The position numbers were made by a program. A stretch of 64,000 nt of DNA from Escherichia coli (lineage in GTDB: Bacteria > Pseudomonadota > Gammaproteobacteria > Enterobacterales > Enterobacteriaceae): assembly GCF_030384885.1 (NCBI RefSeq), contig NZ_CP128614.1. One strand, written 5' to 3'. Shown here in pieces: positions 27,001 to 30,000 of the stretch; the stretch's first letter is position 1; the number at the start of each line of letters is the position of its first letter.

Positions 27001-30000
27001 ACGGTAGCGATAGGCAGGTTTTAATGCTTTTACTGCAGGAAAGTTATCCCATGCAAGTTCTTCAGACTCCAAAAAGCACCAGTAAAATTTTAACGCTCTT
27101 GCATAAGAGCTAAGGTTTTCCAGTCTTTTTTCAGCTTTGAGATGTATAAGCCATTGATTTACAGGTTCTATATAATTACCATCATAACCATACAATGTAG
27201 GAAGTGGACCCACATTTCGTCCCCCCCTGAATTCAATCGATTCATCTGTAGTAATGATATCACCACCAATAAATACATCTGCTGAGTTGAGTAAATAAGC
27301 CAAGAATGCAGACCTCCAATGGTTGTAAACTTCTGCCATGCTCATTCTCCAAAGCCTGATGCTGTTTCCCCGGAAGATAACAAGAAAAGACCGGGTGTGT
27401 GGCTATGAAGAAGATCCTGTATAACTTGAAGAACATGTCCCCGGACATTATATTTCAGTGACATACCTTAGTTATGTTTAGCTCATCTTCAGCGAAAAGC
27501 CAGTACCAGATTAATCATCTGGAAGAGGTGAGCATCTGTTAAGTTTAGACAATATTTCCCGGAACGAGAAACTAGCTGGAAAAATGGAAGAGGAAGGTAT
27601 GAATCAGCGTTTCATCTGGTTTGCGGAAAACAGAGACAAAAAGTATAGGGAGGATATCGATGCTAACATATTTTCTCAATGAGATAATGTGTGATAGTAA
27701 TTTAATGCTTATGTAAAATTGGGCTACCCATTGAAAGAACCAAGAATCAATATAACTGGATAGATGTTTTGGATGAATTGTTCCTTCAGAAATAAGTGGG
27801 GTCTACATACTTTATCAGGTTCAACAGTCTGATACAAAAGATAGTACAACCTCAGTGCCTGGCTGTTTAGCGCTGGTTTTAAAAGGTTAATCAAAGGTTT
27901 TGAAGGAAGGATGATTGAGCAGTAACAGCCTTATGAAGGTTGTATACATTGATACTGCGTGCCCGGAGAGAAAATGAGAGGGTGAGGCATCGGTTTCACC
28001 CTCTCATCAGCCGCTGATATGCTGATGGAAATAAACCACTAGGGCGTACTACTGTATGCTAGATCCCTTTTAATTTAATCATCTTCTGATTTGTATACAA
28101 CAACTTTGATTGAGATTTTATTTTTGACAGACGTAACTTATTTTGGCTGAAAAGTTGTATTCGCTACCCTCATGAAATTAAAATATGCGGAGTACTTTCT
28201 GCCCTGAAAAAGACGCTTCCGTGAAAAGCAGATAAACCCTGATGAGAAAAGATGGTGATCACTAACTGACTAGTAGTGATGTTAATTCACGTTTTTTGAT
28301 TTTTAAGTTCGATACAACTACGTGATAATTTATAGTTTTTATGGGAAAGTGATGCGTTTTACTGAGGGGTGGCATTCTTCAGTAGGGTAAAAATTAATCT
28401 TCCTACAAATTAGTTCTTATATATTGAGATGCTTGGAAAGAATCCGGACTTATGAGTATACGCCATGCTCTAAACGCAAAATTAATGATACGACCATTAA
28501 ACCTCCCTCTTCAGGGTCAATGGCTTCAGTGGGTGTTTTCCAGGCTAATGCTCTGTTAGAGGTATTGCACCATTTCAAAGCAGAATCTCTGTTCCCCTCA
28601 AAAAGCGCTAACGCTTTTAGATGTAGAACACTTTTGGTCATCATCTGTGATCCTGAATGACTTTTTAGTACTTCAAAAAGGTTGCTTCGTAGAGTCATTG
28701 TTTCGGGTCGTTACGAACTCAACTGTGGCAACCTTGCTTGTCATGATTTCCGAACCTACCTGTCGGGGCACAGATAATGCCAGCAAAGATACTATTCCAT
28801 ACGCTATCCCAAAAAGTTACTTTTCTATAGCAACCTAAACCAGTGTGGTTGTGACCAGTCCCCGGTATTAAACACCATAGTCAGTTAGTAATATCAGTTT
28901 TCTTTCTTTATCCCATTTTGCCAGTCTATTGCAAACTCCGCTGGCGTCAGAAAATTCAGTGAGGAATGAGGCCGACATGCTCTGCACTCTGACCTGATAG
29001 CATAAAAAAACTGGCTTTTTAGGCCAGTTTTACAGAGTTGCAAAGGTGTAGGTATAGTTTTTCTACACTAACGTGTCATGGTAGGTTGAGCACTGACGGG
29101 TTGAAGAATTAGTCCAGGTCGGAAGTCCACGTCCAGTCAGAATGCGGCCTACCCAGCTCTGCGTAAGAGACGGTTGGGCGACAAGGACTGTGACCGGTAG
29201 CTGGTGTTCAGCAATGAACATTCTAAGCTGGTTGAGAACCTGTGAAGCCTGATAGTGCATCTCAGGGTTTTCGATCAGCGTATCGGACATCTGAATGAAA
29301 TGATGTTCGCTGATATTTGTGCCGTTACGTACTGCCCTGATCAATGCCATCAGAAATAGGTGAAGAAGAGAATGGGAGTCTTTACCGCCACTGTATCCCA
29401 CGCACATCGTCCATCCGTCCGTAATAGCCTGATAAATAGCAGATGTGGCTGACGTGACCAGAGAAGAAAGACTCACAGTCTCCTTTTCATCGGTATAGTT
29501 CAGATCGGCATCGGTTGTCAGGGTCTCCCAAACATCAGCCCATTTATCATGTTTCAAAATGGCAGCATTAGCCGCCTCAGGAAAAATAACTTCTGAGGGT
29601 AATTCAAGGAATGAGTCACTTTTTTCAATAAACATATATTTTCCTGAACCACGGCATATGCTGCATCACTGATATTTTTATTAGAACTTTAAAATAACTA
29701 CAGCGCAACCATTTAGCGAAATTATATTAAATCAAAATCACGCAAATTTAATTCTTAAATAGATTTAAAATAAAAACCCATTGTAATTTAATCTCCCAGC
29801 ACAGCTATTAGATATAGGTTGGTGGTGTAATAAAAGCCGTGACATTTGTTTTCAACTCAGACAGCGGAATTGAAGGAGTGTTAAGAGTCATGTCATCACC
29901 ACAATGGCGTGGTAGAGCAGAAAGCTGAAATGAATCTTTCATCACCCTAATAACCGGGCATTCCGTACGTGCTGATGGCATTACTTCCCGCAGCATCGCT

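Follow-up and report, generated by a model that had tools for sequence, protein, structure and literature searches.

In a 64,000-nucleotide stretch of Escherichia coli DNA (contig NZ_CP128614.1, assembly GCF_030384885.1; hereafter the window), we identified a small gene that encodes only the partner-binding domain of the Xre/MbcA/ParS antitoxins (PF09722, formerly DUF2384). The window is part of an IncHI2 plasmid with a twin in E. cloacae, pMY490-mcr-9 (L019 in our numbering of compared loci). Our favored interpretation, to which we assign a probability of about 0.6, is that this 64-amino-acid (aa) gene is functional and fixed in the mobile element SE-EasCA1043, that it belongs to a subfamily living without RES toxins, and that its product acts as a regulatory adaptor in the element's own circuit. 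Alignment with relatives shows that an adjacent helix-turn-helix (HTH) gene was lost long ago in the lineage of the element, leaving its last 45 nt, which now supply the ribosome-binding site of the small gene. A paralogous HTH controller and a VspR-like gene, both recognized by homology, remain 9 kb away in the same element.

A single-domain PF09722 gene and its upstream breakpoint

The first-pass annotation of this DNA had reported an 82-aa open reading frame (ORF) at 28450..28698 on the minus strand, with a ParS/MbcA-type signature at its C-terminus. The ORF is present with the sequence quoted there, and the signature was borne out by the profile hidden Markov model search that the annotation had proposed: residues 29–79 of the ORF matched all 51 profile positions of PF09722 (Xre_MbcA_ParS_C), scoring 34.2 bits (gathering cutoff 24.5; E=2.6e-8). 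TIGR02293 was matched at 27.2, under its cutoff of 57, and the NCBIfam Xre_ParS antitoxin model NF049845 at 44.8 bits, below its cutoff of 90. Because this full-length antitoxin model was matched at profile positions 40–112 only, and below cutoff, the N-terminal HTH DNA-binding part is judged absent from the ORF product.

The predicted fold agrees with the profile. Among solved structures, 8GUG chain B is the nearest in sequence (E=2e-7), and an AlphaFold (AF2) model of the conserved 64 residues, with a predicted local distance difference test score (pLDDT) of 91.1, superposes on the C-terminal domain of this protein, VPA0769, with a template modeling (TM) score of 0.84 and 1.3 Å in Foldseek. 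Further Foldseek matches were 6GW6, 9R35, 6D0H, 6FKG, and 8QNQ (probability 0.94–1.00). The predicted four-helix fold thus matches the C-domains of all solved RES-type antitoxins, namely VPA0769, P. putida Xre, ParS, MbcA, and NatR, at TM 0.69–0.85. By profile and modeled structure, the assignment to PF09722 is correct.

The region was resolved into three segments:

28450..28644 (stop included), minus strand: 64-aa gene, MMTKSV...HGVYS, a single domain of the Xre/MbcA/ParS C-terminal fold
28645..28689, minus strand: remnant of the 3′ tail of an HTH gene, carrying the putative ribosome-binding site of the 64-aa gene
28690..28698, minus strand: start of the 82-aa ORF, unrelated DNA with a chance in-frame ATG, beyond the homology breakpoint

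Comparisons place the evolutionarily conserved gene at 64 aa from Met19 (28644) rather than at 82 aa. NCBI annotates the 64-aa protein (WP_023309557.1) on the twin plasmid, and the exact 64-aa product is held in 956 index blocks of an assembly collection versus 57 for the 82-aa call. In two very large protein collections, the closest proteins all measure 62–69 aa and begin where Met19 lies. The Met19 ATG has an AGGA Shine-Dalgarno-like motif 6 nt ahead of it, and no such motif was seen in the sequence before the Met1 ATG (28698). DNA homology to every intact HTH–PF09722 module compared for the breakpoint (L013, L014, L016, and L023–L025) runs from the stop codon up to 28689 and then stops, 45 nt upstream of Met19. 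Since homology ends there and 28645–28689 corresponds to the HTH tail, neither the ATG at 28698 nor any of the 18 codons that precede Met19 in the 82-aa ORF is ancestral; they are an out-of-frame read of the 45-nt tail plus unrelated DNA. A hidden HTH part in another frame just upstream was also considered and rejected, as only the 45-nt tail is found there.

The form without its HTH gene is old. A metagenome copy (L001), which adjoins a srap homolog, shares 73.6% DNA identity and 67% protein identity with the window gene. The two copies are truncated within a few nucleotides of the same point and have in common a 1-nt deletion in the HTH tail that is seen in no intact module, and therefore their sequences indicate a common HTH-less ancestor. 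Between them, the ratio of nonsynonymous to synonymous divergence (dN/dS) is 0.17, with dS of 1.27. When neutral evolution was simulated to an equal divergence, a protein identity as high as the observed one never arose (0 of 20,000 runs), and the frame stayed open in only 9%. The ribosome-binding site is likewise conserved across 26% DNA divergence. These values are those of a gene that, on comparative grounds, is kept by selection without an adjacent HTH gene.

The carrier element and the intact three-gene module

Compared with a backbone plasmid, positions 1–8719 and 29084–43000 of the window are contiguous, at 100% and 99.98% identity, and 8720–29083 forms a single 20.4-kb insertion in a 794-aa "PAPS reductase family" gene. 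Chromosomal Enterobacter copies (L029–L033, L035, and L036) are 99.96–99.99% identical to the window from exactly 29083 inward and sit at the 3′ end of a 451-aa disulfide oxidoreductase gene, with the flank ...AAEEFVT|MTR*. We take this flank to be the C-terminus of glutathione reductase Gor and refer to the site as gor.

By its termini, genes, and footprint, the insertion is the published strand-biased circularizing integrative element (SE) SE-EasCA1043, described from Enterobacter asburiae CAV1043 (NZ_CP034336.1, locus L031 of the present comparison) as a 20,288-bp element with C = TACACTAACGTGTCATGGTA and C′ = ACTGTAACAGTGTGGTAGTA (Idola et al. 2023, PMC10214605). The published and window copies have the same termini and the same intA–tfp–intB–srap operon, and each has a 6-bp footprint; the former lies at gor and the latter in the IncHI2 plasmid gene. 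For SE-EasCA1043, tfp and srap accessions are given by Additional files 3 and 8 of that paper, which does not discuss the 64-aa gene of the leader and has the word "antitoxin" in its reference list only. The main features of the element are as follows:

29064..29083, plus strand: SE terminus motif C, TACACTAACGTGTCATGGTA, attL, the intA-proximal end; exact match to PMC10214605 Additional file 6
8720..8745, plus strand: footprint ACAAAC (GTTTGT in element orientation) and motif C′ (8726–8745, exact), attR
25966..27345, minus strand: intA, 459-aa tyrosine recombinase (Pfam Phage_integrase), 42–43% identical to intA of L021 and of Vibrio pMAO6
21659..26000, minus strand: tfp (591 aa), intB (720 aa; motifs GMRVSE / HQFRRT / KH...EWY), and srap (146 aa)
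19205..21264, plus strand: VspR-like regulator (225-aa ORF, probably ~190 aa) and 464-aa ResIII/DEAD helicase, divergent from the HTH gene
18902..19213, minus strand: Xre-type HTH controller, 103 aa, 61–63% identical to the module HTHs; PADLOC Control_protein E=3.8e-25
12249..16846, minus strand: type II CBASS (cyclic oligonucleotide-based antiphage signaling system) operon (patatin, DncV-like nucleotidyltransferase, E2+E1, JAB), from Pfam and the annotation of the 94%-identical L021 cargo

The SE model predicts a 6-bp footprint (PMC10214605), and in the window it stands beside C′ as a trace of the previous site. This GTTTGT equals the 6 nt beside motif C at the chromosomal gor attL (L031 and L033), and therefore the plasmid copy is a recent hop from the chromosomal gor site, which the window documents. 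In addition, the published chromosomal copy carries TCAACC beside C′, the same 6 nt that border motif C in the plasmid (GCTCAACC|TACCATG). Because the two footprints are reciprocal, they suggest that the element has moved both ways between gor and the IncH PAPS-reductase-family gene. The 64-aa gene, for its part, is a fixed feature of the SE-EasCA1043 leader and not as an accident of the present plasmid.

The intA–tfp–intB–srap operon lies at the motif C end, and its third protein is a large recombinase with catalytic motifs. We had first guessed that it was a GInt operon (ginABCD), an identity replaced by SE after motif inspection and the match to the published supplement. In GInt operons, the second protein is the catalytic recombinase and the third, GinC, has lost the first catalytic arginine. 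By inspection, the third protein here keeps its arginine (GMRVSE) and the second lacks a clean motif set, a distinction that favors SE over GInt. Protein accessions from L021 and L023 were not found in the supplements of the SE paper. Three rearrangements were also rejected as accounts of the separated genes. Insertion of a recombinase element between the HTH and PF09722 genes would give the reverse of the observed order (PF09722 ... HTH, on the same strand); a circular permutation with an attachment site between the two genes does not fit ends that map at 8720/8726 and 29083, the published termini; and tandem elements with an internal PF09722/intA junction should carry an internal copy of the terminal motifs, of which there is none.

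We then compared the gene neighborhoods of relatives on metagenome contigs (L002–L012), in Enterobacter, Escherichia, and Klebsiella reference genomes (L013–L016), and on annotated plasmids (L023–L025). Here, the small gene is directly preceded by a 107–110-aa Xre-type HTH gene that overlaps its start by 14–17 nt, and a divergent 175–186-aa gene lies upstream of the HTH gene. On the downstream side, a convergent four-gene tyrosine-recombinase operon ends beside the small gene; one lineage has an insertion sequence (IS) element there instead. The 175–186-aa partner is remotely similar to VspR-like regulators (tBLASTn E=1.5e-7; hhalign 82% probability, E=1e-5, 163 columns). As judged from these neighborhoods, the normal setting of the gene is a trio beside SE/GInt-type recombinase operons, in which a VspR-like regulator diverges from an Xre-HTH controller followed on the same strand by the PF09722 protein. 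The PF09722 proteins of these modules are 50–58% identical to the 64-aa protein. A frameshift after 22 codons was noted in the Klebsiella grimontii copy (L016, 9981–10171).

The window resembles these modules of Klebsiella, E. coli, and Enterobacter in protein family, in its association with a recombinase operon of SE/GInt type, and in partner families, including a VspR-like gene in the same element. It differs in that the overlapping HTH gene is deleted down to its last 45 nt, the PF09722 gene lies at the opposite end of the recombinase operon on the same strand, and the HTH and VspR-like genes stand 9 kb off, linked to a helicase. No PF09722-like gene was found after the window HTH gene (18902–19213). 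The window VspR-like protein was tied to the 183–186-aa partner family by hhalign (82% probability, E=1e-5), and the identical chromosomal gene of the 225-aa ORF bears the precomputed Pfam labels VspR_N and VspR_C. The HTH protein matches the PADLOC profile Control_protein (E=3.8e-25) and, more weakly, capH (E=4e-9), and it adjoins defense cargo, in likeness to the controller (C) proteins of restriction–modification systems and to CapH of CBASS. This likeness is a feature of the partner HTH and not of the 64-aa protein. The partner of CapH is the protease CapP, not a PF09722 protein.

At the DNA level, 1,366 plasmid records and 249 E. coli genomes contain distant matches to the gene, and nearly all among the matches listed are annotated as a "helix-turn-helix transcriptional regulator" plus an "MbcA/ParS/Xre antitoxin family protein". 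The HTH/PF09722 module with flanking AAA-ATPase genes was seen in ~365 of 5,426 complete E. coli genomes, mostly on the chromosome (L015 and the E. coli matches).

Proposed role and alternatives

The 64-aa protein shares the W..P..AL and RxEHGV(Y/F)S motifs with the C-domains of the RES-type antitoxins; it differs from them in lacking a same-chain HTH and a RES toxin in cis, here and in the close relatives examined, and its subfamily is set apart by WCNEPNRAL.WKTP and a length of 62–69 aa. As the first-pass annotation had stated, no RES ORF follows the gene. A Pfam scan of the six stop-masked frames of 27346–28460 and the three minus frames upstream returned nothing at E<=10. The annotation had also suggested a TBLASTN search of the 27.4–28.45 kb region for frameshifted RES remnants. 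Using as query the RES toxin of a canonical pair in L018, verified by Pfam (RES, E=4e-29), we obtained no match in 27300–28460 even at E<=100, and noise only in the rest of the window. Across 38 homolog-bearing loci (470 kb), RES was found only in the positive control L018, a distant homolog in which a full-length 159-aa antitoxin is followed by RES, and in 0 of the 37 related loci; neighbor lists of the relatives contained no RES either. The window locus has neither the downstream RES gene or remnant nor the N-terminal HTH in the antitoxin that characterize RES-Xre systems (ParST / MbcTA / NatRT). At the level of sequence, nothing suggests that the 64-aa gene was ever paired with a RES toxin.

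We considered how the protein might act without a toxin. It has no DNA-binding domain, and we propose that it works as a regulatory adaptor through protein–protein binding, as the antitoxin domain does, within the control circuit of the element. Its likeliest partner would be the Xre-HTH controller, since intact modules couple the two genes translationally; the partner in the window would be the paralogous HTH 9 kb away. The expected effect would be a tuning of the recombination genes, the defense cargo, or both after entry into a new host or replicon. Transcription of the gene would probably be its own, starting from the palindrome-bearing leader and ending at a hairpin at 27965–28008.

Several observations weigh against this adaptor role. 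In an AlphaFold model of the linked HTH–linker–PF09722 chain, the HTH part is confident, whereas the PF09722 part has pLDDT 43–60 (8 paired sequences), giving no support for an interaction. L021, L022, and Vibrio pMAO6 carry the VspR-like/HTH pair with no PF09722 gene, and the PF09722 protein is therefore dispensable for the VspR-like/HTH circuit. Promoter prediction gave no sigma-70-like site for the minus strand at 28700–29083. The RES check of related loci used one RES seed and precomputed Pfam labels, such that a very divergent toxin of another fold would escape it. Lastly, every solved homolog of the domain binds a RES toxin, which makes a trans-acting antitoxin role a serious rival.

According to this rival, the protein is an orphan antitoxin that neutralizes RES toxins of the host chromosome or of co-resident plasmids, thereby aiding establishment or resisting exclusion or addiction. 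Its fold is that of the toxin-binding domain, seen bound to RES in all solved homologs; the protein lacks a DNA-binding part, is borne by a mobile element, and is under purifying selection, and RES-Xre systems are known on Klebsiella plasmids (knaAT, PMC10896132). However, no RES gene is present in the window or at the 37 related loci, antitoxin–toxin recognition is normally highly specific and a cognate toxin was not found, and the tight, conserved coupling to Xre-HTH and VspR-like genes beside recombinase operons points to a role internal to the element. Serious as it is, we consider this explanation unlikely.

Somewhat less probable still is a function as a recombination accessory or directionality factor that assists or biases IntA/Tfp/IntB/Srap toward excision or integration. 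The gene always lies beside the recombinase operon, whether upstream of intA or at the other end, where srap/ginD is its neighbor. In PMC8138268, the DUF2384 profile served to mark excisionases of tyrosine-recombinase elements. Against this, the protein has no DNA-binding domain, related elements lack the gene entirely, and recombination of SE and GInt elements needs four core genes, with this gene unmentioned (PMC10214605; PMC5385486).

The decayed toxin–antitoxin locus proposed by the first-pass annotation, a non-functional antitoxin leftover whose RES toxin was deleted, fits the partial, sub-cutoff match to Xre_ParS positions 40–112, the flanking IS3 remnant and ~1.1 kb of non-coding DNA, and the true deletion of the upstream HTH gene, but is very improbable given that no RES remnant exists in any frame, that the nearest relatives, all of 62–69 aa, are never RES-adjacent, that an intact ORF with dN/dS of 0.17 and a conserved ribosome-binding site has persisted over 26% DNA divergence, and that the identical protein is kept in hundreds of assemblies. 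The word "remnant" was apt insofar as the gene is left from a larger unit; the lost piece is the upstream overlapping Xre-HTH gene and not a downstream RES gene. Of the two observations named by that annotation as contrary to its reading, namely the lack of a RES remnant and membership in a different family, the first was made, while the family assignment proved right.

The element itself is published and the gene has a RefSeq family name. Within the literature searched, the two key papers on SE/GInt elements describe neither the RES-less single-domain subfamily nor the conserved trio that it forms with an Xre controller and a VspR-like protein beside the recombinase operons, and a broad search for DUF2384 outside RES pairs returned only its use as an excisionase marker. 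The name "MbcA/ParS/Xre antitoxin family protein", given to genes in thousands of Enterobacteriaceae plasmids and chromosomes, is tempting but in this subfamily denotes an accessory conserved in SE/GInt elements and not part of a toxin–antitoxin pair. SE/GInt elements bear resistance genes (tmexCD-toprJ, mcr-9) and defense systems (CBASS), and the conserved trio beside the recombinase operon offers a concrete, testable handle on their regulation.

Leader, operator-like motif, and cargo

The leader upstream of the gene and the stretch downstream of it contain the following features:

29007..29031, minus strand: terminator-like hairpin just inside the element end, conserved in L021
28851..28977 (the stretch up to ~29006 in the leader as a whole), minus strand: 3′-end remnant of an IS3-family (ISKpn34-like) element, 73% identical to the ISKpn34 end in L025; fragment ...RPHSSLNFLTPAEF...
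28812..28824, no strand assigned: 13-bp perfect palindrome AAAAGTTACTTTT, candidate operator, 168 nt upstream of Met19
27965..28008, minus strand: intrinsic-terminator-like hairpin, 13-bp stem plus UUUUCUCU, RNA fold −27.3 kcal/mol, z=−3.4

The palindrome that the first-pass annotation had placed about 115 bp upstream is real (AAAAGT-T-ACTTTT, 114 nt from the ATG at 28698), with 122 nt separating it from the HTH tail. Its interpretation as a retained toxin–antitoxin operator did not survive comparison with L021, a related SE on the Klebsiella oxytoca IncHI1B plasmid NZ_CP115680.1. The L021 leader, of ~410 nt, has no PF09722 gene, yet it ends in the same terminal 75 nt and carries the palindrome just inboard of the hairpin. 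Because the palindrome occupies the same position in a leader lacking the PF09722 gene, it is part of the element's own leader. Relative to L021, the IS remnant separates the terminal hairpin from the palindrome block, breaking the leader exactly between the two, and both this remnant and the HTH-tail/PF09722 segment are additions in the SE-EasCA1043 lineage.

The same annotation had described the locus as still wired into a regulon, and here the recurrence of the motif was confirmed. AAAAGTNACTTTT (AAAAGT-N-ACTTTT) has 12 copies in the window, 7 of them perfect, where 0.47 would be expected; a count of 12 was reached in 0 of 100 shuffles. The sites start at 6769, 14728, 28812, 32182, 36394, 40563, 45383, 47607, 54310, 54375, 59338, and 61202; two belong to the element and ten to the IncHI2 backbone. 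Of the 12, seven are intergenic and precede a gene start by 80–260 nt; two divergent promoter regions are among these. The motif is also present in L001, in L017, in the L021 leader, and, on an IncHI1B plasmid, beside the L022 element, and is absent from ~38 kb of Enterobacter chromosomal flank. From this distribution, AAAAGTNACTTTT looks like a candidate operator of a global regulator, although the site at 28812 arrived with the mobile element.

Tentatively, and with the odds against it, we propose that RES-less single-domain PF09722 proteins are dedicated accessories of SE/GInt elements, in which an antitoxin domain was co-opted with an Xre controller and a VspR-like protein into a switch for recombinases or cargo that perhaps answers an IncH plasmid factor through the shared AAAAGTNACTTTT operator. 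If true, the movement of these elements, themselves non-conjugative, would be coupled to the presence of a conjugative vehicle.

Downstream of the gene, ~1.1 kb (27346–28449) separates it from intA, with stops in all frames and no Pfam or Rfam match. In 27300–29100, the sole Rfam match was a chance-level miRNA at the hairpin. The hairpin at 27965–28008 begins ~440 nt past the end of the 64-aa gene; another ~620 nt, with two promoter-like sites, separate it from intA. L001 likewise has an ORF-poor stretch of similar length after its copy, with no detectable DNA similarity to that of the window.

The cargo at 9085–16846 is a defense island comprising CBASS, a 407-aa effector-like protein with four transmembrane segments, and a 368-aa protein (PADLOC HEC-08, DUF3644). 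Between the HTH gene and CBASS, a 1.7-kb segment (17200–18895) that is missing in L021 holds a second HTH_3 protein (17297–17593) and a BOF-domain ORF (18347–18709). In pMY490-mcr-9 (13092–14974), tfp and intB are annotated as several short coding sequences at ~98–99% identity, reflecting either sequencing errors or inactivation. The L021 cargo is 94% identical to that of the window and its recombinases only 41–45%, a difference that implies exchange of cargo and recombinase modules. The L021 SE occupies the homologous PAPS-reductase gene at a point ~200 bp away from the insertion site in the window and has the opposite orientation, and by this comparison the PAPS-reductase gene is a recurrent target.

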